Shown in pieces: positions 1,715-23,299 of a stretch of DNA of 64,000 bases. Every line of letters starts with the position of its first letter. Position 1 is the stretch's first letter. Location of the stretch: contig CAWDVE010000010.1 of NCBI GenBank assembly GCA_963805625.1, positions 1,952,001 to 2,016,000 on the forward strand, written 5' to 3'. The notes below the pieces were generated by a model. That model searched no databases, was not told the DNA's origin, and worked only from the letters and a program-made list of their open reading frames with translations. The translations under genes and the position numbers were made by a program. This DNA is from an uncultured Candidatus Rokubacteria bacterium. GTDB taxonomy: Bacteria > Methylomirabilota > Methylomirabilia > Rokubacteriales > DASRDR01.

Positions 1715-1749
1715 TGGTGGCTCCAACGGGATTCGAGCGCCTTTGTACA
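1715..1749. repeat. Left att junction: tRNA-Glu 3' end with CCA (minus strand) + 12-bp attP arm
   Basis: GTGGCTCCAACGGGATTCGA (1717-1736) is identical to 23261-23280. CGCCTTTGTACA (1738-1749) is the reverse complement of TGTACAAAGGCG (23246-23257). Confidence 0.85.
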
Positions 1750-1813
1750 CTGAGCTTCCGCGGGATTCTACCGTGACCAGGGACCCCCGGATACCGTCCA
1801 CCCTCCCGGACGC

Positions 1814-1927
1814 CGGACAAACGGCCAGTTTCGTCGAACACAATCGCTCTCGGCTGGCTAGCCTATGCCTATGTAGCCTGACGGTGGTCAGACGCCGTTC
1901 TAGTCCTCCGAAGTGGCCATTTGTCCG
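1814..1927. repeat. 114-bp unit with 17-bp imperfect terminal inverted repeats (copy 1)
   Basis: CGGACAAACGGCCAGTT ... AAGTGGCCATTTGTCCG (15/17 complementary). Related copies at 4044-4157, 49261-49363, and a half copy at 8695-8711. Confidence 0.7.
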
Positions 1928-2384
1928 AGACGCGCGCGGCGCGATGCCTCCTCATTCACGCTGAGGTTCCCAGATCAGACCGATCACCGGCGGGTGGCCG
2001 CGCGCAATGACCTCGGTCGAGGACCCACTCGCGGTGCGCCAGCTCCCCTCTTCCAACGGTTAGCCCAGCCGCTCGGGCCGCCCGGTTCGCCGGGCGGTGC
2101 CGTCGCCATGGCCACCCGACCTCTCCCGACTCATCTGCAGGAGTGGACCCAGGGCTCTCGGTCTGTAGCGGTGGATGGCCAGCCGCGTCTCCTTGCCCGT
2201 CGCCTAAGGCCGTCCTCTTCCGGGGCGCGACGCGTACCTCCCGGCGGTGCCGTCCTTGACACCGCCCGCGGTGGCCATGCAGCATCGAGGTCGAGTGCGG
2301 TAGGGCTGCCTTCGTCCCCCGGCCCCCTGGGGAACGCGGTAAGGGCCATGAGACTTCCCACTTCGTGGCTGACGGAGGGAAACG

Positions 2385-3770
2385 ATGAGCGACGAAGCCA
2401 CCAAGACATTCGAGCAGAGTCTTCGCGGGCGATTGGTCCGCCCCAGCCATCCTGACTACGACGACGTACGCAAGCTCTACAACGGCATGATCGACAAGCG
2501 GCCGCGGCTGATCGCGCGGTGCGTCAACGTGGCCGATGTGATGACCGCCGTGAATTTCGGCCGCGACAACAGCCTACTCATCGCCATACGTGGTGGAGCT
2601 CATAATGGGCCGGGACTCGCGACCGTTGACGATGGTCTGGTTATCGATCTGTCGCTCATGAAGGGCGTGCGCGTGGATCCCGAGAAACGCACCGTGCGTG
2701 TGGAATCAGGTTGCACGTCAGGCGATGTCGATCACGCCACCCATCCGTTCAGGCTGGCCGTCCCCTTCGGGATTGTGTCCACGACCGGCGTGCCTGGGCT
2801 GACGCTTGGCGGCGGAACGGGCTATCTCACACGCCAACATGGGCTCACCATTGACAATCTTTTGGAAGCCGACGTTGTGCTAGCGGATGGCCGATTCGTG
2901 ACCGCAAGCCAGACCCAGAACCCCGACCTCTTTTGGGCCCTCCGCGGAGGAGGCGGCAATTTCGGCGTGGTCACGAGCTTCCTGTTCAAGGCACACCCGG
3001 TGAGCCAAGTCTATGCTGGGCCGATCTTCTGGGACGCCGCGCACGCGCGCGTGATCATGCGGGCGTATCGAGACTTCCTGCCGAACGCGCCGGAGGAGCT
3101 CGGGGCGTTTGTGGGTCTCAAGACCTTTCCGTCAACCGACCCGTTCCCGCGCGACCATTGGGGCAAGCGAGCCTGCGCCGTCATCTCCAGCTACAATGGC
3201 GCCGCGGAGGACGGTGAAAAGGCGATCTCGCCGCTCCTGAAGGCCTTGCCAGCGCCGGTGTTCAATTGGATGGGCGCGATGCCGTTCCCGGCGATCCAGC
3301 GGCTATTTGACCCGTTCTTCCCGAAAGGCCTGCAGTGGTACTGGAAGGGCGACTTCGTTAAATCGCTACCCGACGAGGCGATCGACACTCACATCGCCCA
3401 GGCTGCGAAGGCGCCGAGTGAACTGTCGCTGATGCACCTTTACCCCATCGATGGTGCAGTCCATCGCGTGGGGAAGGACGCGACGGCGTGGGGAGCACGC
3501 GACGCGACCTGGTCGATGGTGATCGCCGGGATTGACGCCGATCCGAAGAAAGCGGGAGATCTGAAGCAGTGGGCCAGGGGCTATTGGGAAGCCGTGCATC
3601 CCTACAACCTCGAAGGCGCCTACGTGAATTTCATGATGGACGACGAGGGCGACGCCCGCATCAGGGCGACGTATGGCGACAACTACAAGCGGCTCGCCGC
3701 GATCAAACGCAAATATGACCCGAAGAACGTGTTTCGCGTCAACCAGAACGTCAAGCCTGCATCCAGCTAG
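2385..3770 (+). CDS. FAD-binding oxidoreductase (FAD_binding_4 + berberine-bridge-like C-terminus)
   Basis: IRGGAHNG, GLTLGGG, DLFWALRGGGGNFGVVT, YVNF, KRKYDPKNVFRVNQN. GGAGG RBS. Confidence 0.93.
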   Translation: MSDEATKTFEQSLRGRLVRPSHPDYDDVRKLYNGMIDKRPRLIARCVNVADVMTAVNFGRDNSLLIAIRGGAHNGPGLATVDDGLVIDLSLMKGVRVDPEKRTVRVESGCTSGDVDHATHPFRLAVPFGIVSTTGVPGLTLGGGTGYLTRQHGLTIDNLLEADVVLADGRFVTASQTQNPDLFWALRGGGGNFGVVTSFLFKAHPVSQVYAGPIFWDAAHARVIMRAYRDFLPNAPEELGAFVGLKTFPSTDPFPRDHWGKRACAVISSYNGAAEDGEKAISPLLKALPAPVFNWMGAMPFPAIQRLFDPFFPKGLQWYWKGDFVKSLPDEAIDTHIAQAAKAPSELSLMHLYPIDGAVHRVGKDATAWGARDATWSMVIAGIDADPKKAGDLKQWARGYWEAVHPYNLEGAYVNFMMDDEGDARIRATYGDNYKRLAAIKRKYDPKNVFRVNQNVKPASS

Positions 3771-3944
3771 CTCATCTCCTGGGACGTGAGACTTGAACTG
3801 TCGATACTGCCATGATCGCCTTTCTGGTTTGTGGCCTAGTGACGCCTCCGGCAGAAGGCCTCGACCCGATGAACGAGAATGCCATCTCCATCTTCCCGAC
3901 AGGTCGTGGGCGTCTAGCGCCGAGCGGGCTGCGCCATCCTCGCC

Positions 3945-4165
3945 TCGCCTTCTGAGTTTCCGCGGGGTTCTATCGTACCCGAGACGGGCCGGGCCTTGCT
4001 CGCGCGCTGCCAGACCAGCCGCGTGTCCCCGGCTCGCGGACCCCGGGCAAACGGCCAGTTCCGTTGGCTACGACCGCATCTGGCTGGCTCGCCTATGCCC
4101 ATATAGTCGGGCTGTCGTCAGCCGCCGTTCCAGGCTGCCGAAGTGGTCATTGATCCGAAACGCGC
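3945..4165 (+). repeat. Diverged direct copy of the element's left-end region (1738-1935), including 114-bp IR unit copy 2 (4044-4157)
   Basis: TGAGTTTCCGCGGGGTTCTA vs TGAGCTTCCGCGGGATTCTA. Both regions share CAAACGGCCAGTT, GGCTGGCTnGCCTATGCC and CCGAAGTGG. Confidence 0.7.
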
Positions 4166-4428
4166 TGCCCGGCGGCCCGCGCTCAACTGGCCAGCCGCGA
4201 TCAACGAGCCGGCCATTTGACCAGACGTGTGTACGGTCCCGCTCGGCCCGCAGCTCCCCGCCGCCTGATTCGGCGCTGCTCCCAGGCTCCACGGCGCCGA
4301 CCGACCTCCCAATGCGGTTGCCGACCTGGACGGCCGCACGCTACCCCCGGGGGTACCGGGCCTATGGGCCACGGGGGCGGGGGAAAGGACCGAACCGGCC
4401 TTCCGTCGCAGCCTGATTGGGATTCGAC

Positions 4429-5231: not shown

Positions 5232-6717
5232 TTGCCGCTCATCGTGGTCACGAACCGCGAACTTCGCGATCTGACCGAGGACGCCCTCGAAGCGGTGCGA
5301 CGCGCCAACGAGCCCCCCACCCTGTTCCAGCGGGGCGGAGCCCTGACCCGGCTCCGGCACAGTGAGCACGACGTCCCGTTCTTGGAGGTGCTGTCGGAGT
5401 CGGCGGTGCGCGGACTGATGGCGCGAACGGCGGACTGGCGCCGGATCACGGAGCAGGGCCAACTCGTCCCAGTGGCGCCACCGATGCCCGTGGTCAAGGA
5501 CGTGCTCGCGCTCCCCGAGTGGCAGGACATCCCGATCCTGCAAGGGATCGTGGAGGCGCCCACATTCAGTCGCGATGGCACGTTGCTCACGCAGCCAGGT
5601 TATGACGCCGAGGGCCGTCTCTGGTTCCACGCCGGCCCTGGGCTGACGATCCCCGCGGTGCCGGAACACCCGTCGCCGGAACACGTGGGCGCGGCACGAG
5701 GCCTGCTCCTTGACGAGCTCCTTGGCGACTTCCCCTTCGCCGATGAGGCCGCGCGCGCTCATGCCCTCGCGGCGATGCTCCTGCCCTTCGCGCGAGAGCT
5801 TTGCGGGGATCGCACACCGTTGCACTTGATCGACGCCCCCACGCCAGGCACCGGGAAGGGGCTTCTCGCGGACATGCTCACGATCCCTGCGACGGGCCGG
5901 AGCGCCGAGATCATGGCGGAGGGGCGCGATGATGAGGAGTGGCGGAAGCGCATCACGGCCATCCTGATCAGAGCACCAGGCTTCATCCTGGTCGACAATA
6001 TCCGCCGCCGCATCGACTCGTCGGCCCTCGCGGCGGTGCTGACGGCCGGACACTGGACTGACCGGCTGCTCGGTCACTCGCAGACGGTCACGCTCCCGGT
6101 TCGCGCCGTCTGGCTGGCCACCGGGAACAATGTCGGTCTCTCGAATGAGATGGCACGCCGCTCGGTGTGGATCCGACTGGATGCCCGCCGCGATACCCCG
6201 TGGACGCGGACGGACTTTCGGCATCCCCAGCTCGGCGCATGGGCACTGGAGCACCGCGGTCGGCTGATTCACGCCTGCTTGACGCTCATCCAGGCATGGC
6301 TCGCCGCGGGACGGCCCGCCGGCGCCGCCACCCTCGGGTCGTTCGAGACATGGGCCACGACCATCGGCGGCATCTTGGGCGTGGCGGGCGTGCCGGGCTT
6401 CCTCGGCAACGCGCACGCGCTCTATGCCCAGGCGGACGAAGAGGTCCAGATGTGGCGCGCGTTCGTCCTCGCCTGGTGGGACACGCATCGCCAGCAGGAG
6501 GTGGGCACCGAGGAGCTGTACAAGCTCGCCATCGAAGAGACCCTGTTGGCGGAGGTGCTCGGGGACGGAGGCGAGCGGTCGCAGCGGACGAAGCTTGGGA
6601 AGGCGCTCGGGCGGATGCGGGAACCGAATCATTGGCACCTACCGCATCGTGAGCGAACACGAGGATGGCAAGGGCCGGCGGCTCTACCGTCTGGAGCCCA
6701 CGGAGCTGCCGACGTGA
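5232..6717 (+). pseudogene. Primase-associated P-loop ATPase/helicase of mobile elements; frameshift near 6620, N-terminus probably decayed
   Basis: Walker A DAPTPGTGKG, LVDNI, WLATGNN, RRSVWIRLD. The natural C-terminus (NRIIGTYRI...RLYRLEPTELPT*) is in another frame and ends at 6717. Confidence 0.65.
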
Positions 6718-6976
6718 GGCAGACGTGCGGCAGACGTGTCGCGTCCACGTCTGCACGCAGGAAGCGCTGTCAGGACGCGGACTTACAGTCCAAAGGCAGA
6801 CGTTGCCGACGTTTTCCGGTCCTCCCCTCCCGTACAGCAGAATCCTGAGAAGCGAAAACTACAGTTTGGGCCCGGAAAACGTCTGCCCACGTCTGCTATG
6901 ACGCGGAACCTTGCGGAACATCGTGCGTATTTCCCGCCGACGTGTGTGCCGACGTGGTGCCGACGTGGCAGACGTG
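6708..6976. repeat. Iteron-like cluster, 12 copies of GC(A/C)GACGT(G/T), putative replication origin
   Basis: Forward at 6708, 6719, 6730, 6796, 6805, 6936, 6948, 6959, 6968. Reverse at 6746, 6878, 6888. Confidence 0.75.
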
Positions 6977-8262: not shown

Positions 8263-8271
8263 GAGACGATC

Positions 8272-8637
8272 ATGACAAGCGAACACGTCGCCGCGCGCAA
8301 GCACGTGCAAGACCTGGCCCGACCAATGCGGTTCCGCATCGCCTACGATACCGAGGGCTTCCCCGTAATTCCCGCACGCCACGGCCGTGTCGAGTGGTTC
8401 GAGGGGCGTAACCTCGCCGTCTACTGTGATCGTCCGCGCCTCTTTGCGAAGCTCTGGGCGATCCCCGGAGTCCGGCGCCACCAGACCGGTGACCAGGAGA
8501 TGCGGGCGGTCTTCCCGGCCGAGGCGCTCGATCAGGTGGCCGGGGTCATCCGGGCCCGGCGGCAACGCTGCCTGGCCCCGGAGACCGCCCGTAGGCGGTC
8601 AGGACTTGCCACAGTCAGGACGACTTCCGGCGGCTAG
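8272..8637 (+). CDS. Hypothetical protein of the mobile element
   Basis: AGGAG RBS, globular-looking sequence (DTEGFPVIPARHGRVEW...RHQTGDQEMRAVF). C-terminal remnant of a homolog at ~49190-49288. Confidence 0.65.
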   Translation: MTSEHVAARKHVQDLARPMRFRIAYDTEGFPVIPARHGRVEWFEGRNLAVYCDRPRLFAKLWAIPGVRRHQTGDQEMRAVFPAEALDQVAGVIRARRQRCLAPETARRRSGLATVRTTSGG

Positions 8638-8694: not shown

Positions 8695-8726
8695 AAGTGG
8701 CCGGTTGTCCGTGCTACCCTGGCCGC
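8695..8726 (+). promoter_or_regulatory. Conserved 32-bp leader: IR half-site + extended -10-like TGCTACCCT
   Basis: Identical to 49347-49378. Both copies precede an M-x-CPRCQH zinc-ribbon start. Confidence 0.55.
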
Positions 8727-8750
8727 GCTCCGACACGGGAGGGCCCCGGT

Positions 8751-11700
8751 ATGCAATGTCCCCGGTGCCAGCACGACAACCCACCGCGGGCCAAGTTCTG
8801 CTTGGAGTGTGGGACACCCGCGGACGGTGTGGCCTCGTCCCATGCAGACCTGAAGGCCGAGCTCGAGGGACTGAGGAGCTCGCTCGGCGAGGCGCTGGAA
8901 CAGCAGACCGCCACCGCCGAGATCCTGCGCGTCATCTCCAGCTCTCCGACCGACGTCCAACCCGTGTTCGCGGCGGTGTTGACGAGCGCCGCCCGTCTGT
9001 GCGACGCCTCCGATGCCACGATCTTCCAGGTCGATGGCGACGAGCTCCGCATCGTCGCTCACGAGGGCCCGATCCCTCTTACTCCTGTCAGCGCGCTTCC
9101 TCTGATACGCGGAACGGCCGCGGGACGTGCGGTGCTCGACCGGCGGACAATCCACGTTCCCGATTTGCAGGCCGAGGTTGACGAATACCCTGAGAGCAGT
9201 GCCCTCGCCCGGTCCCATGGTTCCCGGACGGTGCTCAACGTGCCTTTGTTCCGCGGGGCCGAGGCCATCGGGGCGGTCTCCATCCGGCGGACCGAGGTAC
9301 GTCCGTTCACCGACCGGCAAATCGAACTCCTGCAGACCTTCGCCGCCCAGGCCGTCATCGCCATCGAGAACGTCCGGCTGTTCACGGAGCTGCAGGAGAA
9401 GAACCGCGTGGTCATAGAGGCCCACGCGCAGGTGACCGAGTCGCTGGAGCAGCAGACGGCGACCGGCGAGATCCTACGGGTCATCGCGAGCTCGCCGACC
9501 GAGCTCCAGCCCGTCCTGGATGCTGTCGTGGGGAGCGCCGTGAGGTTCTGTGCCGCAGATGACGCGGTCATCCTGCGCCTCGAGGGCGACCGCTTTTCGG
9601 TGGTCGCTCACCACGGCCTGGTTTCTGCTCCTCTCGGGTTCGTGGTTCCGGTGGCCGGGACGACTTCGGGGCGCTGCGTGCTCGAGCGGCGGCCGGTTCA
9701 CGTGGCCGATCTTCAGGCCGCCACGGAGGAGTTTCCCGAGGGGAGCGCCAGCGCCCGAGAGCTGGGCGTTCGCACGATCTTGAGCGTCCCGCTGTTCCGG
9801 GAAGATGTGACGCTGGGCGTGATCATGCTGCGGCACACGCGGGTCGAGCCCTTTTCGGACAAGCAGGTGGCGCTGCTCCAGACCTTCGCCGACCAGGCCG
9901 TGATCGCCATCCAGAACGTGCGGCTGTTCAACGAGACGAAAGAGGCGCTCGAGCAACAGACGGCCACGAGTGAGATCCTGCGAGTCATCGCGAGCTCGCC
10001 GACCGATCTCCAGCCGGTCATGGCGGCGGTTGCTGAGAACGCCGCCCGGCTCTGTGGAGCGAACGACGCGATGATCCTCCGCGTGGAAAACAACATGCTC
10101 CATCCGGCCGCCGTGTTCGGGGGAATGCCGAGCGTGTCGGTCCCACTCTCCCGCCGGTCACCGGGCGGCCGCACGGTGATCGACCAGCAGACTTTGCACA
10201 TCCATGACGTTGCAGCGGTCGCCGCAGAGTATCCCGACAGTCCGGCCGCTGCCCGTGGCGTGCGCACCCTCCTGAGCACCCCGTTGCTGAGCCAGGGCGG
10301 CTCCATCGGGGCGATCGTCATCCGCCGGATGGAGGTCAAGCCGTTCACCGACCAGCAGATCGCTCTCCTTCAGACCTTCGCCGACCAGGCGGTGATCGCG
10401 ATCGAGAACGTGCGGTTGTTCACCGAGTTGCAGGAGAAGAATCGCGCGCTCACCGCCGCCCATGCCCAGATCAGCGAGACCCTGGAGCAGCGGACCGCCA
10501 CGGCCGAGATTCTCCAAGTCATCTCGCGCTCGCCGACCGACGTGCAGCCGGTTTTCGATACCATCGTCCGGTCCGCGGTGCCCCTGTGTGCCGCAGTGCG
10601 GAGCAACGTCCAACTGTTCGATGGCGAACTGATGCATTGGGTTGCGCAGTACAACGTCCGCTCGGAGGCGATGGACTTGATTCACCGGCTCTACCCGATG
10701 CAGCCGGATCGAAGCCAGACAGCGAGCCGCGCGGTCCTGACGAGAAGCGTCGTGCACCTGCCCGACGTCCTGGACGATCACGAGTACCGCCGAGAGCTGG
10801 CTTTGAGTGGCGGCTGGCGCAGCATGCTGTCGGTACCGATGATCCGGGCGGGAGACCCCATCGGGGCGATTACGGTCGTGAGGGACGAGCCCGGGCGGTT
10901 TTCGGAGACCCAGATCGCGCTGCTCCAGACCTTCGCCGACCAGGCCGTCATCGCCATCGAGAATGTGCGGCTGTTCACGGAACTGGAAGGGAAGAACCTG
11001 GCCCTCACGAAGGCCCATGCCCAGGTCACGGAGGCGCTCGAGCAGCAGACGGCGACGGCCGAGATCCTGCGGGTCATCGCAAGCTCGCCGACCGATGTCC
11101 AGCCCGTGTTCGACGCCATCGTAGAGAGCGCGGTGCGCTTGTGTGAGGCGCGGTATGGAGCGGTGTTCAGCTTCGACGGTGAGCTCCTTCGCTTCGTCGC
11201 GCACTACAGCCTTCCCGAGGCAATTTTGGAGGCGGTTCGCAGGCAGTTTCCGGTGCATCCGAGCCGCGCAGTAATTGCGGGTCGGGCGGTCCTGAGCGCC
11301 GAGGTCGTCCAGATCCCCGACGTCTATCTAGATCCCGACATCACTCCCAACGCGGCACGGGCAGGCGTCCGAGGCCTGCTGGCAGTCCCGATCCTCCGCG
11401 CGGATGCCCCCATTGGGGCGATCGTCATCTACCGGACAGATCCAGGCTCGTTCGCCGACAACTACATTTCGCTGCTCAAGACCTTCGCCGACCAGGCGGT
11501 GATCGCCATCGAGAACGTCCGTCTGTTCAATGAGACGAAAGAGGCGCTGGAACAGCAGACGGCCACGGCTGACATCCTGCGCGTGATTGCAGGCTCACCG
11601 ACCGATCTGCAACCGGTCATGGAGGCCGTCGCCGAGAATGCCGCGCGGGTGTGTGGGGCATTAGATTCCTCGATCTTCCGTCTCGAAGGGGAGCACCTGC

Positions 11701-13370: not shown

Positions 13371-16300
13371 GGTGCCCCCGGTGCCAGCACGAGAACCCGT
13401 CCGAGTCGAACTTCTGCCTCGGGTGCGGAGTCCGCCTCGGTCTGCGATGCGCCTCCTGCGGCAGCGACCTCCCGACAGAGTCTCGATTCTGCAACAAATG
13501 CGGTCACGCGGTCGGTGACCAGGTTGATTCGGACCGACGCTTCTCCTCGCCTGACGCCTACACGCCCAAGCACCTGGCCGAGAAGATTCTCACCTCCAAG
13601 GCCGCCCTCGAGGGCGAGCGGAAGCAGGTCACGGTGCTCTTCGCCGATCTCAAGGGCTCGATGGAGCTGCTTGCCGATCGGGACCCCGAGGAGGCGCGGA
13701 AGCTTCTCGATCCCATCTTGGAGCGGATGATGGAGGCCGTCCACCGCTACGAGGGCACCGTCAACCAAGTCATGGGCGACGGCATCATGGCGCTGTTCGG
13801 GGCGCCGCTCGCCCACGAGGATCACGCGGTGCGGGCCTGTTACGCGGCGATCGATCTCCAGCGTGCGATGCGGCGGCTGACCGAGGCGCTCCGGCTCTCC
13901 CACGGGCTCACCGTCCAGGCCCGGGTCGGCCTCAACTCCGGCGAGGTCGTGGTGCGCACGATCGCGAGCGACCTCCACATGGACTATACGGCCGTGGGCC
14001 AGACCACCCACCTGGCCGCCCGCATGGAGCAGCTCGCCAGCCCGGGCACGACGCTCCTTACCGCCGACACCCTCCGCCTTGCGGAAGGGTACGTCGAGGT
14101 GACGCCGCTCGGCGCCATGCCGGTCAAGGGGCTGCTCACGCCGGTCGAGGCCTACGAGCTCATGGGCGCGGGACCCCGGCGCTCGCGCCTCTCCGCGGCG
14201 GCCGCGCGCGGGCTGAGTCGTTTCTTGGGCCGGGACGGGGAGCTGGACCAGCTCCGGGAGGCGCTCGGTCGTGCGGCGAGCCGGCACGGTCAGGTGGTGG
14301 CGATCGTCGGCGAGCCCGGCGTCGGGAAGTCGCGGCTCGTCTGGGAGGTGACCCACTCCCACCGGGCTCACGGCTGGCTGATCCTCCAGGCGGGCTCGGT
14401 GTCGTACGGCAAGGCCACGCCGTATCTCCCGGTGATCGACCTCCTCAAGGGCTACCTCCAGATCGCCGACCGTGACGAGCCCCGCGCCATCCGGGAGAAG
14501 GTCACGGGCAAGCTCCTCACGCTCGACCGTACCCTTGAGCCCGCGCTCCCCGCGCTCCTCGCGCTGCTCGACGTGCCGGGGGAGGACCGCCGGTGGGAAG
14601 CGCTGGACCCGCCCGCGCGGCGGCAGCGGACCATCGAGGCTTTGAGACGGCTCCTCCTGCGGGAGAGCCAGGCCCAGCCGCTCCTGGTCGTGTTCGAGGA
14701 CCTCCACTGGATCGACGCGGAGACGCAAGCCGTCCTCGATCGGCTGGTCGAGAGCCTGCCGACGGCCCGGTTCCTGCTCCTCGTCAACTACCGCCCGGAG
14801 TACCGGCACGACTGGGGTGGGAAGACCTACTATCGCCAGCTCCGGCTCGATCCGCTCGCGCCGGCCAATGCGACCGCACTGCTGGAGACCCTGCTCGGCG
14901 GCGACGCCGGTCTCGAGCCGCTAGAGCGCCTCCTCCTCGCGCGGACCGAAGGCAACCCGTTCTTCCTCGAGGAAAGCGTGCGGAGCCTCGTGGACGACGG
15001 GGTGCTCGCGGGCGAGCGCGGCGCGTATCGGCTCGTGAAGGCGGCGGACACCATCCACGTGCCGGCCACGGTGCAAACGATCCTGGCGGCGCGGATTGAC
15101 CGGCTACCGCCGGAGGACAAGACGCTCCTCCAGACCGCCTCGGTCGTCGGCACCGACGTCCCGGTCGCCGTGCTCGCGGGCGTCGCCGACACAGCCGCGG
15201 AGGCGCTGGCCGACCGCCTCGGCCGCCTCCAGGCCCGCGAGTTCCTCTACGAGACGCGCCTCTTCCCCGACGCCGAGTACACCTTCAAGCACGCGCTCAC
15301 GCATGAGGTGGCCTACGGGAGCCTGCTCCAGGATCGCCGGCGCGCACTCCACGCCCGGGCCGTCCCGGCCATCGAGGGCCTCTACCCTGAGCGGCTCGCC
15401 GAGCACGTCGAGCGCCTGGCCCACCACGCGCTCCGGGGCGAGGAGTGGGAGAAGGCTGTCTCCTACCTCCATCAGGCCGCCAGAAAGGCGTTGGCGCGCT
15501 CGGCCTACCGGGAAGCCGCGGCCAACTTCGAGCAGGCGCTCGACACGCTCCGGCACCTTCCGGAGGGTCCGGAACGGACGAAGCAGGCCATCGACCTCCA
15601 CCTCGACGCCGTCGGCGCGGTGGTAGGGGCGGGCGCGTGGGTGAAGAGCACCGAGCATATCCACGAGGCAAAACGCCTCGCCGAGGCGCTGGGGGACGAG
15701 CGCCGGCTGGGGCGGACCTTGGCGGCGCTAGCAGTCTGGGCCTGGAGCGCGGGTGATCCCGATCAGGCGCTCGAGCTGAGCCATCGGGCTCTGGCCATCG
15801 CCATTGGCCACAACGACGAGTCCCTCCAGGCATTGGTTGGCGACCGCCTCGGCGCGATCTGGCAGGAGAAGGGAGACTATCGGCAAGCTGTCGAGCACCT
15901 CAGCCGGGGCGTGGAGGCGCTTCAGGACAATCGGCAGTACAAACGGACACCGACCGGCGTCGTGGTGTCCATCTGGGCGCGGGATCGGCTCGCCGCGTGC
16001 CTCGCCGAGTTGGGTGACTTCGCCGAGGCAATGGCGCGCGCCGAGGAGGCCGGCCGGATCGCCCGCGAGATCGATCATGCCCCCAGCCAACTCTGCGCTT
16101 ACCGAAGCCTGGGGCTCGTGTCCCTCCGCCGCGGTGATCTCGTACAGGCGATTCCTCCGCTCGAGCATGCCGTCGAGCTGTGCCGAGGCATCCCGGCACC
16201 GAACTACTTCGACGGCTCGGCTGCACGCCTCGGCTACGCGTACGCGCTGTCGGGCCGCCTTCCCGAGGGCGTGGCCCTTATCGAGGAGGCGTTGGCCAAC

Positions 16301-16735
16301 CCTGCGGCGATGGGCGGCGTCGCCAACCATCCGCTGTTCCTGGCCTACCTCGGCGAGGCACACCTCCTGACCGGCCGTGCGGGCGATGCGCTCGAGGTCG
16401 CCCGGCGCGCCCTCGACCTCGCGCAGCGCCAGAAGGAGCGCGGCAACGAGGCGTGGGTGCTGCGCCTCCTTGGCGAGATCGCCGCGCACGACGACCCGCC
16501 AGACGTGAAGTCAGCCGAGGACCACTACCGCCAGGCGCTCGCGCGATCCGACGAACTCGGCATGCGCCCCCTGGTCGCCCACTGCCACCTCGGCCTCGGC
16601 AAGCTCTACCGGCGAACCGGGGACGGCGCGAAGGCCGAGCAGCACCTGACGATCGCGAGAGCCATGTATCGGGAGATGGGCATGAGTTTCTGGCTGGAGA
16701 AGGCAGACACGGAGCTGGGTGGAGTCCAGCGATGA
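13367..16735 (+). CDS. Double zinc ribbon - class III adenylate/guanylate cyclase - AAA/STAND ATPase - TPR protein
   Basis: Four CxxC, TVLFADLKGS, MGDGIMALFGAP, GEPGVGKS, VFEDLHWID, GNPFFLEE, C-terminal TPR-like helices. ATGA overlap with kinase gene. Confidence 0.92.
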   Translation: MRCPRCQHENPSESNFCLGCGVRLGLRCASCGSDLPTESRFCNKCGHAVGDQVDSDRRFSSPDAYTPKHLAEKILTSKAALEGERKQVTVLFADLKGSMELLADRDPEEARKLLDPILERMMEAVHRYEGTVNQVMGDGIMALFGAPLAHEDHAVRACYAAIDLQRAMRRLTEALRLSHGLTVQARVGLNSGEVVVRTIASDLHMDYTAVGQTTHLAARMEQLASPGTTLLTADTLRLAEGYVEVTPLGAMPVKGLLTPVEAYELMGAGPRRSRLSAAAARGLSRFLGRDGELDQLREALGRAASRHGQVVAIVGEPGVGKSRLVWEVTHSHRAHGWLILQAGSVSYGKATPYLPVIDLLKGYLQIADRDEPRAIREKVTGKLLTLDRTLEPALPALLALLDVPGEDRRWEALDPPARRQRTIEALRRLLLRESQAQPLLVVFEDLHWIDAETQAVLDRLVESLPTARFLLLVNYRPEYRHDWGGKTYYRQLRLDPLAPANATALLETLLGGDAGLEPLERLLLARTEGNPFFLEESVRSLVDDGVLAGERGAYRLVKAADTIHVPATVQTILAARIDRLPPEDKTLLQTASVVGTDVPVAVLAGVADTAAEALADRLGRLQAREFLYETRLFPDAEYTFKHALTHEVAYGSLLQDRRRALHARAVPAIEGLYPERLAEHVERLAHHALRGEEWEKAVSYLHQAARKALARSAYREAAANFEQALDTLRHLPEGPERTKQAIDLHLDAVGAVVGAGAWVKSTEHIHEAKRLAEALGDERRLGRTLAALAVWAWSAGDPDQALELSHRALAIAIGHNDESLQALVGDRLGAIWQEKGDYRQAVEHLSRGVEALQDNRQYKRTPTGVVVSIWARDRLAACLAELGDFAEAMARAEEAGRIAREIDHAPSQLCAYRSLGLVSLRRGDLVQAIPPLEHAVELCRGIPAPNYFDGSAARLGYAYALSGRLPEGVALIEEALANPAAMGGVANHPLFLAYLGEAHLLTGRAGDALEVARRALDLAQRQKERGNEAWVLRLLGEIAAHDDPPDVKSAEDHYRQALARSDELGMRPLVAHCHLGLGKLYRRTGDGAKAEQHLTIARAMYREMGMSFWLEKADTELGGVQR

Positions 16736-17706
16736 CGCGAGTCTTGTCGATCATACTGATCGTTGCGGCTCTCGCCGCGCCGCTCGCCACCGAAGCGCAA
16801 CAGCCAGCGAAGGTTCCCCGGATCGGATATCTAGAATCCGGCGCCCCTGGCACGCCCCTCGTGGAGGCATTCCGGCAAGGGCTCCGCGATCTCGGCTGGA
16901 TCGAGGGCCAGAGCATCGCCGTTGAGGTCCGGGCCGCCGACGGGAAGTATGATCGGCTGCCTGAACTCGCGGCTGAGCTTGTCCGTCTCAAGATTGACGT
17001 GATCTTCGCCTCGAGCACGCCAGCGGCCCTGGCTGCCAAGCAGGCCACCACGACGATCCCCATCGTCATCGGGCGTGTGGCCGATCCGGTTGGGAGTGGG
17101 CTGGTCACCACGCTGGCGCGGCCGGGGGGCAACATCACGGGGTGGACGCATCAGGGTCTCGAGTTGCGGGTGAAGTACCTGGATCTGCTCAAAGAGGCCA
17201 TACCGGGGGCCACGCGGATCGGTATCCTCTGGAACCCTGCCAACCCCATCCATGGTCCGTCGTTGAAGTCCATCGAAGCCACGGCCGAGGCACTCAAGGT
17301 GGAGCTTCACCCCGTGGGGGCGCGAGATCCTCAAGAGATCGAGAGCGCCTTCTCTGCGCTGGCCGAAAAACGCGTGCAGGCGCTCACGGTGTTTCAGGAT
17401 GGGATGTTCTTGGCTCAAGGACAGCGGATCATCGCCCTCGCTGCACGAGGTCGAATCCCGGCGATGTACGGTCTCACGGACCTTGTGAGGGCCGGTGGAC
17501 TCATGGGCTATGGAGTCAACTTGCCCGGCATGTACCGGCACGGGGCATCGTTCGTGGACCGCATCCTCAAGGGCGCCAAGCCGGCCGATCTCCCCATCGA
17601 ACAGCCCACCACGTTCGAGTTCGTGATCAACCTGAAGACCGCCAAGGCCCTCGGCCTCACGATCCCGCCGGCGGTGCTCGCGCGGGCGGATCAAGTGCTT
17701 CAGTGA
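16732..17706 (+). CDS. ABC-type substrate-binding protein (PF04392-like)
   Basis: Signal peptide, RIGYL, LARPGGNITG, ILKGAKPADLPIEQPTTFEFVINLKTAKALGL. Confidence 0.9.
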   Translation: MTRVLSIILIVAALAAPLATEAQQPAKVPRIGYLESGAPGTPLVEAFRQGLRDLGWIEGQSIAVEVRAADGKYDRLPELAAELVRLKIDVIFASSTPAALAAKQATTTIPIVIGRVADPVGSGLVTTLARPGGNITGWTHQGLELRVKYLDLLKEAIPGATRIGILWNPANPIHGPSLKSIEATAEALKVELHPVGARDPQEIESAFSALAEKRVQALTVFQDGMFLAQGQRIIALAARGRIPAMYGLTDLVRAGGLMGYGVNLPGMYRHGASFVDRILKGAKPADLPIEQPTTFEFVINLKTAKALGLTIPPAVLARADQVLQ

Positions 17707-18683
17707 TGGACCGACGGGGTTTTGTCGCCGGCGCGGTCAGCGTCCTCGCCGGGCCGCTCGTGGCCTGGGCGCAGCCGGTTGGGCACCTCCCAGCGCGGAT
17801 TGGCTACCTGGGGAACGGGAACTCGAACCCGAATACCTCACTGAAGGCGTTCCGGCAAGGCCTTCGTGACCTGGGTTGGATCGAGGGCCAGACGGTCGTG
17901 ATCGAGTACCGCTGGGCCGAAGGCCACCTCGAGCGCCTCCCGGCGCTGGCGGCCGAGTTGGTCCAGGTCAGGTGCGACGTCATCGTCGTGGCCGGGACTC
18001 AAGGGATCCAAGCGGCCAGGCAAGCGACCAGCCGCATTCCCATCGTCATCGGTGCCCTCCTGGTCGACCCGGTCGGCCTCGGCTTCGTAACCAGCCTGGC
18101 GCACCCGGGTGGGAACATCACCGGACTCGCCTCCGAATACGAGGCCATCGTCACGAAGCAAGTACAGCTCCTGACGGAAGCAGTCCCGAGGCTTGCCCGG
18201 CTAGTCCTGCTCCGTTACGCACCCGGTGTGCAGGGTCCAGCCGCCGCCGCGGCCGGCGCCGCCGACACGCTTGGTCTCAGGTTCCGAGTGCTTGAGGTCA
18301 AGGAGGCCGCCGAGCTCGAGGGCGCGTTCCGAACGGCCCGCGACGAGCACGCCCAGGCCATTCACGTGCTACCGAGCCCATTTTTCGACGTGCACCGGCG
18401 TCTGTTGGCCCAGCTGGCTGCCCGCTACCGCCTCCCGGCCATGTACGAGTTCAGGGAATATGTCCAGGACGGAGGCCTCATGTCGTACGGACCGAGTCTG
18501 CCTCAGATGTTCCGGCGGGCTGCCACCTATGTCGACAAGATCCTCAAAGGCGCCAAGCCCGCCGACCTCCCCATCGAGCAGCCGACGAAGTTTGAGCTCG
18601 TCATCAACCTGAAGACGGCGAAGGCCCTCGGCCTCACCATTCCGCCCTCGGTGCTGGCCCGGGCGGACGAGGTCATCCAGTGA
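17706..18683 (+). CDS. ABC-type substrate-binding protein (PF04392-like), Tat-like signal
   Basis: MDRRGFV start, TGATG overlap, same family motifs as the upstream paralog. Confidence 0.9.
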   Translation: MDRRGFVAGAVSVLAGPLVAWAQPVGHLPARIGYLGNGNSNPNTSLKAFRQGLRDLGWIEGQTVVIEYRWAEGHLERLPALAAELVQVRCDVIVVAGTQGIQAARQATSRIPIVIGALLVDPVGLGFVTSLAHPGGNITGLASEYEAIVTKQVQLLTEAVPRLARLVLLRYAPGVQGPAAAAAGAADTLGLRFRVLEVKEAAELEGAFRTARDEHAQAIHVLPSPFFDVHRRLLAQLAARYRLPAMYEFREYVQDGGLMSYGPSLPQMFRRAATYVDKILKGAKPADLPIEQPTKFELVINLKTAKALGLTIPPSVLARADEVIQ

Positions 18684-18818
18684 TCCCGAATCTGACGCCC
18701 GGGGCCGGCGCGCGGTAGGGTTCGGGCAGGATGGCCGCGCGGGGTCGCCCCGAACGGAGGACGCGGTGACGGACCGACTCCTCGCGTTCCTGTACCAGCA
18801 CGCGGTGAGGACTGCGCC

Positions 18819-19430
18819 ATGAACTGGAGGTTCGCCTATTCGATTGGCTTCCACCCCTGGGAGGACGCCGTCACCGATCCACCATTCGTCGAGAAGGCTT
18901 CGGAACTGTTCGACCGCGAGGAGCAGGGGCGCGAGCCCCCCTACGGGCTGGCACTTGATCTGGGCACGGGGAGCGGAATCTGGGGGATCCAGCTCGCGAA
19001 GCGCGGCTGGCAGGTCACGGGTATCGACTTCGTCGAGAAGGCCCTCCGGCGCGCCCGCGACCGGGTCCAGAACGCCGGCGTCGCCATGCGGCTCATCCAT
19101 GCCGACGTGACCGCTCTGCGAGCGGCGGGCGTTGGCCAAGGCTTCCGGTTGGTCCTGGACACCGGAACCTTCCACGACCTGGACATGGTCCAGCGCGAGG
19201 CAGTGGGTCGGGAAGTCAGCGCGGTCGCGGCGGCCGATGCCACCGTGTTGCTGCTCGTGTGGCCGAAGCGCTGGAGACCACTAATACGGGGCGCGAGCCG
19301 GAGCGAGGTCGAGGCGGGGTTCCCCGGATGGAAGGTGACGAACGTGGAACCCTCGCACTTTCGGCCACCCAAGGTGCTGGAGTTGCTGCTGAGGCCCGAT
19401 GAGCACTGGTATCGGCTTCGTCGAGCCTGA
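18819..19430 (+). CDS. Class I SAM-dependent methyltransferase
   Basis: ALDLGTGSG, VTGIDF, LVLDTGTFH. Confidence 0.88.
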   Translation: MNWRFAYSIGFHPWEDAVTDPPFVEKASELFDREEQGREPPYGLALDLGTGSGIWGIQLAKRGWQVTGIDFVEKALRRARDRVQNAGVAMRLIHADVTALRAAGVGQGFRLVLDTGTFHDLDMVQREAVGREVSAVAAADATVLLLVWPKRWRPLIRGASRSEVEAGFPGWKVTNVEPSHFRPPKVLELLLRPDEHWYRLRRA

Positions 19431-19474
19431 GTTGTACGCTTGTCCATAGTGGCGCGGGCAGACGTGGTGATCCA

Positions 19475-19756
19475 GTGACGCCACCGATCTGGCTCGACGC
19501 CGCTGGCCGGCCCCGTCTGACGCGCGCCTGCTGGACCTGTGGCCGGGAGGTGGCGCCCATGCGGTTCCGGGCTGAGGACCTTCGCCCGCACGGGTGGCGA
19601 CCGCCCCAGACCCTCCAGATCCCTGACTGGTGTGGCTGCTCGACGGAATACCTTCCGGTCCCCACGGGTGATGGCTGGTGGCAGCTGGTGCCGATCTGGG
19701 ACCCTGGGCAGACCACCAATCCACTACGGCGCTATGAGACGCCCGAGCCCCGGTGA
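19475..19756 (+). CDS. Small Cys/Trp-rich hypothetical protein
   Basis: CWTC and WCGC motifs. Same strand as neighbours, 3 bp from next ORF. Confidence 0.5.
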   Translation: MTPPIWLDAAGRPRLTRACWTCGREVAPMRFRAEDLRPHGWRPPQTLQIPDWCGCSTEYLPVPTGDGWWQLVPIWDPGQTTNPLRRYETPEPR

Positions 19757-19759
19757 GCG

Positions 19760-20044
19760 ATGGCGATCCGGCGGATCCGGCGCCCACCCCATCCGATCGC
19801 CCTGACCACGAAGGCCCAGGCGCTCTACGAGGTCGCGCTCAGTGCGGTGCCCTCGCGGGCCTGGCGCGCCGCCTTCCTCCGGCCGCCGCCCGCGCTGACG
19901 CCCGCGCGGTACACGCCGGAGCTCGGCCGTCTGGGCCTCGAGGGTGCCCGGGTCAGCTTCCGGACCAGCCCGCCCCATCTCCACCGGTGGCTCCGCCGGA
20001 TCGACCGCTGGATCGAGTACGCCAACTCGATAGTGGAGGAGTGA
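19760..20044 (+). CDS. Hypothetical protein
   Basis: Globular-looking sequence ending WLRRIDRWIEYANSIVEE. Confidence 0.55.
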   Translation: MAIRRIRRPPHPIALTTKAQALYEVALSAVPSRAWRAAFLRPPPALTPARYTPELGRLGLEGARVSFRTSPPHLHRWLRRIDRWIEYANSIVEE

Positions 20045-20118
20045 TCCCGTCTGGCGCCTAGGAACGGGGGAGCTCCAGCCTCAGACGAGGCTTGACCGAA
20101 TGTCACTTATAGAGGACA

Positions 20119-20322
20119 ATGGCACCTATCAAACGAGTGTCGAAGCGTCTGAAGCGACTACGCACGGAGCGAGGGATGAGTCAGCAGACCCTGGCCACGA
20201 AAGCGAAGATCAGCCGCGGATACTTAGCGCGCCTCGAAGCGGCCGCGCAGGATCCCACGCTCGGCGTGCTCGAGCGCCTTGCCAAAGCGCTCGGCGTGCC
20301 GGTGACGGCGCTGCTGGAGTGA
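20119..20322 (+). CDS. XRE-family helix-turn-helix regulator
   Basis: LKRLRTERGMSQQTLA..AKISRGYLARLE...PTLGVLERLAKALGV. GAGG RBS. Confidence 0.88.
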   Translation: MAPIKRVSKRLKRLRTERGMSQQTLATKAKISRGYLARLEAAAQDPTLGVLERLAKALGVPVTALLE

Positions 20323-20339
20323 AAGGAAAGGAGACTCCC

Positions 20340-20639
20340 ATGACCAGGGACGAGGGACGAGCCTTCATTCGAGCGCGCCTCGACTCTCAGTTCGGCAAGA
20401 CCCACAACATTAGCGACGAGGGGTCCAGCCGGACCCAACTGGTCAGCTTCGTGTTGAGTCCGGTCGCCTCCGGCGCCACGTACTACGTGCTGGAGATCCA
20501 CGAGGATCTGCTCGCCAGCGAAGAACTGGAGACGCAACTCGCGGAGGCGCACGTCATCGATCAGTTTCGGAACAAGGGCGTCAGGAGACTTCGCATCCCG
20601 CCGAACGGACCCGCGGAGGTACTCGATCGATACGAATAA
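20340..20639 (+). CDS. Hypothetical protein
   Basis: AGGAG RBS, MTRDEGRAFIRARL... Confidence 0.55.
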   Translation: MTRDEGRAFIRARLDSQFGKTHNISDEGSSRTQLVSFVLSPVASGATYYVLEIHEDLLASEELETQLAEAHVIDQFRNKGVRRLRIPPNGPAEVLDRYE

Positions 20640-20773
20640 GGCGCACGTCGGCCCGGCAGGTCCTTGGCGCCCCCCCCGAGCCGGACACGGGCGCGTGCGG
20701 CGACCTCACGCACATCTCGACGCCACGCCGGACGGCCACGGGCGCCGCGGCTGCTCGAGGAGGGAGGGAACTG

Positions 20774-21058
20774 ATGCAACAGATTCGGATCGTGGACGAC
20801 ACGACTCGCGCCCAGGACGCGACGCGAATCCAAGACACCGAGAACATGCGCCTCACGCTCTCCGATGAACCGGACCAAACGTGGATCGCCCGGCTGCGCC
20901 AACTCGCCGCCGCGATGGATCCCGAGTTGGCTCTCAAGCTGCACGTGGAGGGCCGCACGCTCGTGTTTGCGTGCGCGGATCGAGCGACTCTCTTGGCGCG
21001 CCGGCAGCTCATCGGGCAGCTGGTCGAACAGACGAACACGACCGAGGGTTCAACATGA
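20774..21058 (+). CDS. Hypothetical protein
   Basis: GGAGG RBS, protein-like composition. Confidence 0.55.
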   Translation: MQQIRIVDDTTRAQDATRIQDTENMRLTLSDEPDQTWIARLRQLAAAMDPELALKLHVEGRTLVFACADRATLLARRQLIGQLVEQTNTTEGST

Positions 21059-21129
21059 TCGGCCGTCTCCGCGCGCAAGTCGACCCCGCGGATGGCGGCG
21101 CTGGAGCTGTGAGCGCCGAGGAGTCACGT

Positions 21130-21549
21130 ATGTTCAAGCACATCCTGGTCCCAATCGATCTCAGCCATCGGAATGAGCGTACGTTGCGCATCGCGGTCGG
21201 GCTCGCGCGGATCACGCAGAGCCGGGTGACGCTGTTGCACGTCATTCAAGGTATCGCCGGGGTGTCGACGCGGGAACTGCGCACCTTCTACAAGACACTC
21301 GAGCAGCGCTCGCTGCGCACGCTCGCACGGGCGGCCAAGCGATTCGTCGACGCCGAGGTGGCCGTCCGCGCCATCGTGGTCATCGGGCATCCCGCCCACG
21401 AGATCATCAAGGCAGCGAGGGCTCGGAAGGTGACCCTGATTGTGATGGGCTCCCACCGCGTGATGCCGGGACGCCCTGGCCGAGGCTTGGGCGCCACCAG
21501 CTACAAGGTCGGGATCGGCTGTCCGTGTCCGATTCTCCTGGTGAAGTGA
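21130..21549 (+). CDS. Universal stress protein (UspA family)
   Basis: MFKHILVPIDLS, TLLHV, LIVMGSH, CPCPILLVK. AGGAG RBS. Confidence 0.9.
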   Translation: MFKHILVPIDLSHRNERTLRIAVGLARITQSRVTLLHVIQGIAGVSTRELRTFYKTLEQRSLRTLARAAKRFVDAEVAVRAIVVIGHPAHEIIKAARARKVTLIVMGSHRVMPGRPGRGLGATSYKVGIGCPCPILLVK

Positions 21550-21598
21550 ACCGAGGTCGACGGACTCCGGGGCCGCACGCCGTGAGTCGGAGGATTCC

Positions 21599-23299
21599 AT
21601 GATCGCCGCGATCTACGCCCGCAAGTCCACTGAGCAGAACGGCATCAGCGATGAGGAGAAGTCCGTCACTCGCCAGATCGAGCACGCGAAGGCTTACGCG
21701 ACGAAGAAGGGCTGGGCGGTCGCCGAGGACTACGTCTACGTCGACGACGGCATCAGCGGCGCCGAGTTCGTGAAGCGTCCGGGGTTCCTGCGACTCATGA
21801 ACGCGCTCAAGCCGACGCCATCGTTTGGCGTACTCATCATGTCGGAGGAGTCTCGCCTGGGACGCGAGCAGATCGAGACCGCCTACGCGCTGAAGCAGAT
21901 CATCACGGCTGGCGTGCGCGTCTTCTACTACCTCGAGGACCGGGAGCGCACTTTGGAGAGCCCGACCGACAAACTCCTGCTCTCGGTCACGGCCTTCGCC
22001 GATGAGATGGAGCGCGAGAAGGCGCGCCAGCGGACCCACGATGCCCTCGTACGGAAGGCGCGAGCGGGGTACGTCGCGGGCGGCTCCGTCTACGGCTACG
22101 ACAACATCGAGGTCACGGTGCCCGACACCGTGACCGGGAAACCGAAACGGCTCCATGTCGAGCGGCGAATCAACGAGACGGAGGCCGTAGTCATTCGCGA
22201 GATCTTCGAGAAGGCGGCGGCAGGCTGGGGTACCCGCCGGATCGCCCACGACCTGAACGCCCGTGGAGTTCCGGCTCCCCCACCCCGCAGGGCGGGGCGA
22301 CCGCGGGCGTGGGCGCCCTCAACCATCTACGCCATGCTGACTCGATCCCTGTACCGAGGCGAGGTCGTCTGGAACCGCAGCCGCAAGCGGAACGCCTGGG
22401 GCATCAAGCGTCAGACCGGGCGGGCCGAGGCGGAATGGGTTCAGCTCGAAGTGCCGGGCTTGCGCATCGTCCCGGAGCCCCTGTGGCAGGCGGTCCGCGA
22501 GCGATTCCGGGACACGCGCGCGTCGTACCTCCGGGCCACCAACGGCCAGCTCTGGGGCCGTCCAGCCAACGGCATCGAGTCGCGATACCTCCTGACCGGC
22601 TTGGCCCAGTGCGGGCTCTGCGGGGGGAGCCTCGTCCTCCACAGCCGGGCTTCCGCAGGCCGACGGACCCCCGCCTACCTCTGCAGCTACCATCATCTGC
22701 GCGGGAGCACGGTCTGTCCCGGCGGGCTGGTCCTCCCGATGGACCTGACCAACGAGGCGGTCCTGAAGACCATCGAGCAGGAGGTCCTGCACCCCGAGGT
22801 GGTGCAGCGCGCGCTGCGCCGGGTCCTGGGCGAATTGAACGCGCCCACCGACACCGTGGTGCCCCACCGGACCGCCCTCCAAGCGGAACTCGCCGTCTTG
22901 GAGCAGGAGCTCGCTCGGCTCGCCGCTGGCGTGGCTCAGGGTGGCGACCTCAAGGTGCTGCTGGAGGGCATCCGAGCCCGGGAGCAGCGTCGACGCCCCC
23001 TCCAGGAGGAATTGGCCGGGCTGGAAGGTCTCCGGCCCGTCAGCGCCCGGGACCTGCAGGTCATCCAGCGAGAGGTGGAGGTACGACTGACCGACTGGCG
23101 GGGTCTCCTGCGGCGCCAGGTCGTGCAGAGCCGCCAGATCCTCAGAAAGCTTCTGGTGGGACGGATCGTCTTCCGACGACGGGGGGATGGGGTCTACAAG
23201 TTCAGCGGCCAGGCCTCGCTGGGCCGGCTCCTGGCCGGAATCGTCTGTACAAAGGCGGGCGTGGCTCCAACGGGATTCGAACCCGTGTTTCAGCCTTGA
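21599..23299 (+). CDS. Large serine recombinase (resolvase + recombinase + zinc-ribbon/coiled-coil domains)
   Basis: AAIYARKST (catalytic Ser), DDGISGA, SRLGR, YGY, YLLTGLAQCGLCG, YLC...C. 3' end runs through the att core. Confidence 0.95.
   Translation: MIAAIYARKSTEQNGISDEEKSVTRQIEHAKAYATKKGWAVAEDYVYVDDGISGAEFVKRPGFLRLMNALKPTPSFGVLIMSEESRLGREQIETAYALKQIITAGVRVFYYLEDRERTLESPTDKLLLSVTAFADEMEREKARQRTHDALVRKARAGYVAGGSVYGYDNIEVTVPDTVTGKPKRLHVERRINETEAVVIREIFEKAAAGWGTRRIAHDLNARGVPAPPPRRAGRPRAWAPSTIYAMLTRSLYRGEVVWNRSRKRNAWGIKRQTGRAEAEWVQLEVPGLRIVPEPLWQAVRERFRDTRASYLRATNGQLWGRPANGIESRYLLTGLAQCGLCGGSLVLHSRASAGRRTPAYLCSYHHLRGSTVCPGGLVLPMDLTNEAVLKTIEQEVLHPEVVQRALRRVLGELNAPTDTVVPHRTALQAELAVLEQELARLAAGVAQGGDLKVLLEGIRAREQRRRPLQEELAGLEGLRPVSARDLQVIQREVEVRLTDWRGLLRRQVVQSRQILRKLLVGRIVFRRRGDGVYKFSGQASLGRLLAGIVCTKAGVAPTGFEPVFQP

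Follow-up and report, generated by a model that had tools for sequence, protein, structure and literature searches.

Serine integrases whose genes overlap their own attachment (att) sites have been described before. In Dehalococcoides the ~540-aa CcrB-like serine integrase DsiB is located at the transfer-messenger RNA (tmRNA) gene ssrA (McMurdie et al. 2011, PMC3146451), and its gene overlaps the att site and has no stop codon of its own, an arrangement to which the authors attached a suggested regulatory relevance. Streptococcal integrative and conjugative elements (ICEs) in rumA encode serine integrases with the att site inside the integrase gene, the C-terminus being swapped (Ambroset et al. 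2016, PMC4701971), and the tyrosine integrase of myxophage Mx8, cited in the same paper, likewise has its att site inside the gene, loses 112 residues and is reported to be less active in the integrated form. In mycobacteriophage BPs a C-terminal ClpXP tag whose coding sequence spans attP is lost on integration (PMC3694055), while among the tRNA-site elements of Prochlorococcus, the tycheposons, 27 of 937 carry a large serine recombinase (LSR; bioRxiv 10.1101/2020.12.28.424599). Here a 64,000-nucleotide stretch of an uncultured Candidatus Rokubacteria genome is described (the window; all positions are window coordinates unless a contig is named, G000 being the source genome and C10 the contig that carries the window). 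It contains a 21.5 kb segment that, judged from its sequence, is very probably a real, well-bounded serine-integrase element, likely inserted by its own LSR into the 3′ end of a tRNA-Glu(CTC) gene. The junctions, the integrase gene and the adjoining tRNA-derived sequences are the following.

1645..1669, plus strand: paired GTGGCAAC repeats outside the element, the end of a neighbouring element type
1702..1749, plus strand: left junction, attL-type (B arm 1702–1725, P′ arm 1726–1749, predicted crossover AA 1725–1726, outer arm 1738–1749)
1726..1776, plus strand: replacement C-terminal frame, TGFERLCTLSFRGILP and stop, whose 12-residue tail (frame 1738–1776) would replace 5 residues in the circle
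21599..23299, plus strand: LSR, integrated form, 566 aa, with Resolvase, Recombinase and Zn-ribbon domains above the Pfam cut-offs
23246..23293, plus strand: right junction, attR-type (P arm 23246–23269, B′ arm 23270–23293, predicted crossover AA 23269–23270, outer arm 23246–23257)
23258..23305, minus strand: 3′ half of tRNA-Glu(CTC), not an intact gene, from the anticodon stem to the acceptor end, 48 bp identical
23343..23363, minus strand: inverted paired GTGGCAAC repeats outside the element, the end of another insertion

The 20-bp direct repeat GTGGCTCCAACGGGATTCGA is present in exactly two copies, at 1717–1736 and 23261–23280, and has no further match in the window at up to three mismatches; the chance expectation is 0.02, and two matches were obtained in 0 of 100 shuffles. 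The outer arm at 23246–23257 is the exact reverse complement of 1738–1749 (12/12), and the symmetry of the arms is centred on the AA at 1725/1726 and 23269/23270, leading to a centre-to-centre span of 21,544 bp. Among 400,000 random position pairs on contig C10 a 12/12 match was never reached and at least 10 matches were reached in 59. The reconstructed site displays the geometry of a serine-integrase attP, namely ~40–50 bp with inverted arms and a central dinucleotide. The left junction includes, on the minus strand, the displaced 3′ end of tRNA-Glu with its encoded CCA. By standard tRNA numbering the predicted centre coincides with the T-stem/acceptor-stem junction, and the P arm supplies the acceptor strand and the discriminator, not the CCA. 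A natural empty site is found in a same-genus relative (G021:C6, locus L137), where an intact tRNA-Glu is accompanied by a tRNA-Gln; it is identical to the window over 34 bp to the left and 36 bp to the right of the predicted centre (70 bp), and its left flank is the same as the left flank of the window. The repeat, the symmetric attP with its central AA and the element boundaries put forward in an earlier sequence-only reading thus all hold, the hybrid junctions rejoining to the empty site of G021. In addition, a 429-bp contig of sequencing run X1 spans the left junction with 0 differences, although this run is possibly the source sample and hence not independent.

A different origin of the 20-bp repeat, in which a tyrosine integrase produced it and the LSR is a passenger, draws on the paired GTGGCAAC repeats that flank both ends in the manner of arm-type sites, on the dispersal of tRNA-Glu halves over the genome and on descriptions of tRNA targets as typical of tyrosine integrases (PMC9303363, PMC13626063, PMC10654092). 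However, the GTGGCAAC repeats are positioned outside the repeat-bounded segment and accompany a longer (~48 bp) tRNA duplication, a PF00589 search identified no tyrosine integrase inside the element, the symmetric arms co-vary about one centre between elements, and the LSR gene itself spans the junction, so that this origin is hardly credible. The sequence-only reading had itself remarked that tRNA targets are more typical of tyrosine integrases; such targets are indeed uncommon for serine integrases, but they have been published, both for DsiB at tmRNA and for the 27 of 937 Prochlorococcus elements.

The LSR displays the large-serine-recombinase architecture, with Resolvase and Recombinase domains followed by a Zn-ribbon/coiled-coil region and a catalytic Ser (Ser10). 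A YARKS catalytic motif and a GGAGG ribosome site are present, as are the four cysteines of the Zn-ribbon, and the recombinase reading frame of 566 aa is intact, as had been proposed. Its predicted model has a mean predicted local distance difference test score of 82.8 and a fold that agrees with solved serine integrases at 16–18% identity in structure alignments. Residues 551–566 are modelled with low confidence, hence the C-terminal tail probably lies outside the folded core. Membership of the SCCmec Ccr recombinases was rejected, since the LSR scores 97 and 48 bits against the NCBIfam CcrB and CcrC models, where the cut-off is 900. The closest genome matches, 84–89% identical, belong to Rokubacteria/Methylomirabilota records. 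Homologues at E <= 1e-30 occur in 43 of 151 genomes of the order, a tally that takes in one unpublished genome (G083) from which no other result is drawn. A protein search gave 2,777 matches among 7,990 candidates scored. In a search of representatives 1,796 clusters reached E <= 1e-30, a figure that counts more distant LSRs as well. Among annotated phages only distant LSRs were found, and no record covered 80% of the query.

The integrase gene runs through the right junction, and attP is therefore situated within the integrase gene. The antisense strand of tRNA-Glu encodes the last five residues of the integrated protein (PVFQP) and also its stop codon, which comes from the antisense of the anticodon loop. 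With attP inside the gene, excision would swap the tail of the protein, and the LSR encoded by the circle would have 573 aa compared with 566 aa in the integrated form. The sequence-only reading had presented the recombinase and its sites as a ready-to-test pair; testable it is, but the 21599–23299 protein it named is the integrated form, and the circle would encode the 573-aa one. The replacement frame was scored in the left ends of sufficient length (n = 13). It is free of stops over the first 13 codons in 13 of 13, compared with 8/13 and 1/13 for the other frames, and past the 24-bp arm the pairwise differences at codon positions 1/2/3 amount to 128/60/189, against 279/330/297 after the stop. 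As the 13 left ends are kin, these counts are not independent; they support, without proving, a protein-level constraint on the tail frame.

The present surroundings of the element differ from an intact target. ARAGORN called 0 tRNA genes in the window and Rfam recognised no known RNA family there; the sole intact tRNA-Glu(CTC) of the genome is located on another contig (C11:59807–59882). A 29-mer of the tRNA half has nine copies in the genome at <=4 mismatches, comprising this half, the intact gene and seven further 3′ halves. Past the anticodon arm the tRNA match ends and paired GTGGCAAC repeats begin, and the insertion that ends at 23343–23363 likely came later and displaced the 5′ half of the tRNA. 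As the element adjoins a displaced tRNA half, its excision at this site would not give back a tRNA gene. The proposal that the element targets tRNA-Glu is thus upheld as to specificity by the G021 empty site and by the relatives, but what adjoins the element at present is a displaced 3′ half and not an intact tRNA. The polymerase chain reaction for an empty attB that had been suggested would be confounded by the intact C11 gene and the seven other 3′-half copies.

Paired GTGGCAAC repeats beside tRNA-Glu halves are a common element end and resemble tyrosine-integrase arm sites. In G000 they are found at C10:1942437, C14:19779, C14:32995, C16:580052 and C19:5227, and elsewhere at L038, L040, L044, L062, L064, L065, L082 and L137. 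A profile built from 13 tyrosine-integrase hits of the genome matched three loci, none of them with paired repeats, and neither this profile nor the LSR profile had a match in 10 regions around GTGGCAAC-type ends. The rejoined flanks of the element form inward-facing repeat pairs around a tRNA half and look attP-like, which raises the alternative that the insertion took place in a circular GTGGCAAC-type element, at its tRNA-derived attP, and that the 21.5 kb element was never at a chromosomal tRNA; the window has no intact tRNA and the adjacency of C10 and C11 is unproven. In G021, however, the identical left flank is joined to an intact chromosomal tRNA-Glu, the GTGGCAAC-type end directly adjoining its 3′ end. 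Close homologues also terminate at an intact tRNA, ARAGORN still calling a complete tRNA at their junctions, and the tRNA halves of C10 and C11, being in the same orientation, agree with accretion in tandem. Entry into such a circle is accordingly judged quite improbable.

Related LSR loci end at an intact antisense tRNA in 16 of the 30 returned (Glu 8, Arg-CCT 6, Leu 1, Met 1), and among the loci of the closest genome matches, Nitrospira included, five of seven do so, two of these five being also in the 30-locus set. Of 27 LSR-ending stretches, the window included, a centre was definable in 21 others and absent in five. Three of the 21 have a cognate left end with differing arm sequences that are nevertheless symmetric about the same centre.

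G140:C10: 8,132 bp, arms 12/12, LSR 38% identical
G043:C75: 13,717 bp, arms 10/12, non-tRNA site, centre T|C
G140:C22: 30,900 bp, arms 10/12

The position of the crossover is delimited by junctions of the P′ arm, which within the subclade were compared at 14 loci, the window included and L076 left out; the 13 others have different left flanks. In five of the 14 the tRNA identity is lost a few bases left of the AA, in two of them (L074, L083) at −3, and in G043:C75 the host and element arms diverge at −2. The divergence at −2 and −3 bounds the crossover on the left. In the distant locus L005 the sequence leaves the tRNA at +2. A pattern search of 251 genomes of the class detected the exact P arm in three genomes and the exact P′ arm in four besides G000, all of the same genus. 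P-arm matches with two mismatches in three distant genomes were taken as chance, and the metagenome P′-arm matches L079, L081 and L084, which have neither core nor tail, were dropped as chance.

Several observations weigh against insertion of the whole segment as one unit by this LSR. The right bound of the crossover depends on symmetry and on the single distant junction L005. Fifteen of the 21 LSR ends have no left end in the 5–60 kb compared and one has a tRNA half only, G017:C8 and G033:C11, both close homologues, being among these 16; two more have a left end with non-matching arms, which are read as tandem hybrids. None of the three closest homologues (84–89%) has a matching left end within 10–60 kb. 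In the suggested check of homologous flanks, three elements share the register and the three closest homologues lack a matching left end within that distance. Twenty runs were listed, and among the joints and loose ends listed for the seven compared, as assembled contigs mostly of other strains, no circular junction was present; at the contig level this absence is uninformative about excision. The comparison of C10–C11 adjacency with five relatives gave only patchy matches. Finally, the whole subclade has the same arm, and the element contains, at 3945–4165, another left end in degenerate form, so the two ends could derive from two related copies. On these last grounds, and because relatives often show hybrid junctions and orphan ends and their cargo is patchy, the segment might be a composite whose ends come from two related, partly deleted tandem LSR elements, its 21.5 kb never having been one mobile unit and its att sites and enzyme still being cognate. 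The 12/12 match of the outer ends and the natural occurrence of the rejoined site in G021, flank included, render a composite unlikely, and it would alter the history only, not the pairing of integrase and att sites.

Other junctions in this and related genomes are also informative about neighbouring elements. A second intact LSR (39% identical) is present in G000 at a tRNA-Glu(TTC) (C14:19591–42150); upstream of it is a left end that has a non-matching arm and a tail ending in IRIA. At L046/L061 (G017:C8:3006457) and at the G140:C22 left end the junctions are palindromic, the tRNA-Glu T-arm being joined to its own inverse, which suggests recombination between oppositely oriented sites. In a loose end of run X7 other sequence follows position 1725 directly; translated in the LSR frame it gives YLKAL..., a tail that is also C-terminal in two LSR genes (P0035 and P0076); this is likely the end of a further element that cuts at almost the same place, minus the second A.

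Insertion of the element by its own LSR would proceed as follows, by extension from the known serine-integrase mechanism. LSR dimers would bind the 48-bp attP and the tRNA attB and make a 2-bp-staggered cut where the T stem meets the acceptor stem, at the central AA (TT when read on the tRNA strand), after which the half-sites would rotate and religate. As attP contributes the acceptor 3′ strand and the discriminator without CCA, the tRNA would be rebuilt, while the 12-residue tail of the integrase would be left at the far end and five residues plus a stop would be gained from the antisense tRNA. Historically, the end of another element may already have stood to the left of the target, and the tRNA 5′ half would have been split off by an insertion that came later at the anticodon arm and displaced the 3′ half together with the element, which would leave the copy in an island array beside a tRNA fragment. 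Large serine recombinases join attP to attB in one direction only and need a directionality factor for the reverse; excision of this element would likely need such a factor too, and none was identified in it.

The interior of the element was surveyed by a Pfam scan of 22 open reading frames (ORFs), 19 of them within the element, which took in part of the short ORFs. The remaining features are listed below.

1814..1927, strand not assigned: conserved imperfect inverted repeat of ~115 bp, close inside the left end
2385..3770, plus strand: FAD-linked oxidase (BBE-like), cargo
3945..4165, plus strand: degenerate second left end, with part of the P′ tail and the inverted repeat, the att core lost
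5232..6848, plus strand: primase/helicase-like ORF (phrog_19930, phrog_10537; C-terminal part of the profile only)
8272..8637, plus strand: 121-aa unnamed protein, encoded upstream of the LSR also by three close relatives
8697..18683, plus strand: multi-GAF histidine kinase, adenylate/guanylate cyclase-AAA-TPR protein and two ABC substrate-binding proteins, cargo
18819..21549, plus strand: methyltransferase, small unnamed ORFs and universal stress protein, cargo

The ORF at 8272–8637, which has 364 homologues and no family name, is a backbone gene, and the signalling and metabolic cargo is typical of the lineage. No virion, relaxase or conjugation/secretion gene was found with Pfam and PHROGs among the ORFs scanned, a set that covers part of the short ORFs, and a prophage or ICE was rejected on the lack of virion and conjugation genes among the scanned ORFs within the boundaries. 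As transfer genes are lacking and the primase/helicase-like ORF is apparently 5′-truncated, the element is probably helper-dependent or decaying. The inverted repeat at 1814–1927 has a DNA fold z of −2.6 and weak covariation (4 of 34 pairs), and a like repeat is found inside the left ends of relatives; it is possibly an origin or a protein-binding site, and a structured RNA is not claimed, the covariation being weak. A second copy of the inverted repeat is located at 4033–4165. The left end has no promoter or terminator consensus. Short non-coding stretches at 2014–2046 and 2245–2297 are found under many soil-metagenome contigs and have no Rfam match.

Outside the element, an HsdM subunit of a Type I restriction-modification system (469–1584, minus strand, 371 aa) looks 3′-truncated and is located where the neighbouring island on the left ends. 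An ISAzo13-family transposase, a primase-like ORF and a tyrosine recombinase (56448–57464) occupy 53049–57464, with a degenerate tRNA-Glu fragment at ~50430, and are possibly another island remnant. On C11, at the locus of the true tRNA-Glu gene, two 90% identical ends are positioned 37 kb apart, at 22.3–23.0 kb and at 59.2–59.9 kb; they are accompanied by ORFs that resemble terminase subunits by eye, and their junction resembles the P arm of the LSR.

The alternative C-termini were also compared across the family. Of 268 homologues retrieved, 196 were near full-length and were divided by a motif rule into 124 with tRNA-antisense tails and 72 with other tails. An Ala-Ala ending is displayed by 25 of the 72 non-tRNA tails and by 0 of the 124 tRNA-derived ones, the internal AA frequency being 0.75%; an earlier, narrower rule counting AA, VA or IA endings gave 27/97 versus 0/101. 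AA-type proteins are scattered among tRNA-type proteins, the nearest neighbour being tRNA-type in 21 of 27, and the tail label changes 20 times on the tree (shuffled mean 25, minimum 20), so that some clustering of AA-type tails remains. The proteins P0040 and P0046 are identical at 557 of 559 positions and have alternative tails, one with (P0046) and one without -AA. In the viral set (IMG/VR) 16 loci were returned and 15 examined, one weak partial match being excluded: three are cut by the contig end, three have tRNA tails and the nine others end in AA (7), VA or AV. Three of the 15 have a symmetric site of the unintegrated type (12/14) inside the LSR gene, a score of at least 12 being reached by 1 of 300 random windows, and in two of these the stop codon ends 51 nt after the centre, a spacing shared with the window element.

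The tag of the host tmRNA, whose gene is on C12, ends in LAA, and tails with such an ending act as ClpXP signals. The family-wide distribution of AA tails suggests a degradation tag that is removed upon integration. The large clade, found in Rokubacteria, Nitrospira, Acidobacteriota and viral contigs, may comprise tRNA-targeting serine integrases in which the C-terminus is a recombination-operated switch, a tentative proposal whose chances are put a little short of even. The circular form would end in an Ala-Ala ClpXP-type tag that limits the integrase of the free element, integration would exchange the tag for antisense-tRNA residues and stabilise the enzyme, and a later element entering the rebuilt tRNA end would give the resident integrase its own tail, thereby re-tagging it. 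This applies to the family and not to the window copy, for which a degron was rejected: its excised tail ends in ILP, and the tails of 12 sister left ends likewise do not end in AA. The window subclade would have retained a coded tail and lost the tag.

In a host lineage that is uncultured and has no genetic tools, the locus provides a precisely mapped set of integrase, attP and attB. The set naturally targets the conserved end of a tRNA, which insertion rebuilds. Relatives add further choices of tRNA (Arg, Leu, Met) and of central dinucleotide. The suggestion made for DsiB, that overlap of integrase and att site regulates the enzyme, becomes directly testable here, the two LSR forms differing merely in 5 versus 12 terminal residues, and in P0040/P0046 nature supplies two proteins, 99% identical, of which one has the -AA tail and the other lacks it. 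For such tests two protein forms have to be considered, and the local site is a tRNA fragment.

In its domain order, fold and ~48-bp attP with symmetric outer arms, the system resembles the integrases of Bxb1, phiC31, Listeria LI and TP901-1. Unlike in these phage systems, neither a capsid nor a directionality factor was identified in the element, and phage serine integrases mostly target protein genes with short cores (PMC9303363), in contrast to the tRNA used here. No account of a tRNA-Glu/Arg-targeting serine-integrase clade was found in the literature listings and excerpts consulted, although members may be entered in the tables of TIGER/Islander and Durrant; the words 'tRNA' and 'transfer RNA' are absent from the main text of PMC10083194, and no -AA tail on serine integrases was found described in the main-text excerpts searched. 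Tycheposons share an integrase at one end, a primase/helicase gene, cargo, a tRNA target and tandem arrays with partial tRNAs; they mainly carry an inward-facing integrase of a tyrosine clade, whereas the LSR here faces outward and crosses the att site, and membership was rejected on this ground. In BPs attP lies in the repressor gene and the tyrosine integrase keeps its tag, whereas here it is the integrase's own tail, without Ala-Ala, that is swapped. The rumA ICEs are conjugative and occupy a protein gene, in contrast to the tRNA target and the absence of conjugation genes from the ORFs scanned here, and Mx8 loses 112 residues where 12 are exchanged for 5 in the present element. The layout is closest to that of DsiB, with a serine integrase overlapping att, a 20-bp repeat of a tRNA-like 3′ end and tandem islands. 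DsiB differs in targeting tmRNA and not a true tRNA (Glu here; Arg, Leu and Met in the relatives), in cutting midway through the T-loop and not at the predicted T-stem/acceptor junction, and in its six-gene module, which includes DsiA, RecF-like, ParB and Mom proteins and an embedded tRNA-like locus; no DsiA-like second recombinase, RecF-like, ParB or Mom protein was found among the 22 ORFs scanned, nor any tRNA call in the window. Thus, the layout is already published for DsiB and the tail exchange is already known from the rumA ICEs and Mx8, and the element described here, with its tRNA-Glu target, is a variant of that layout.

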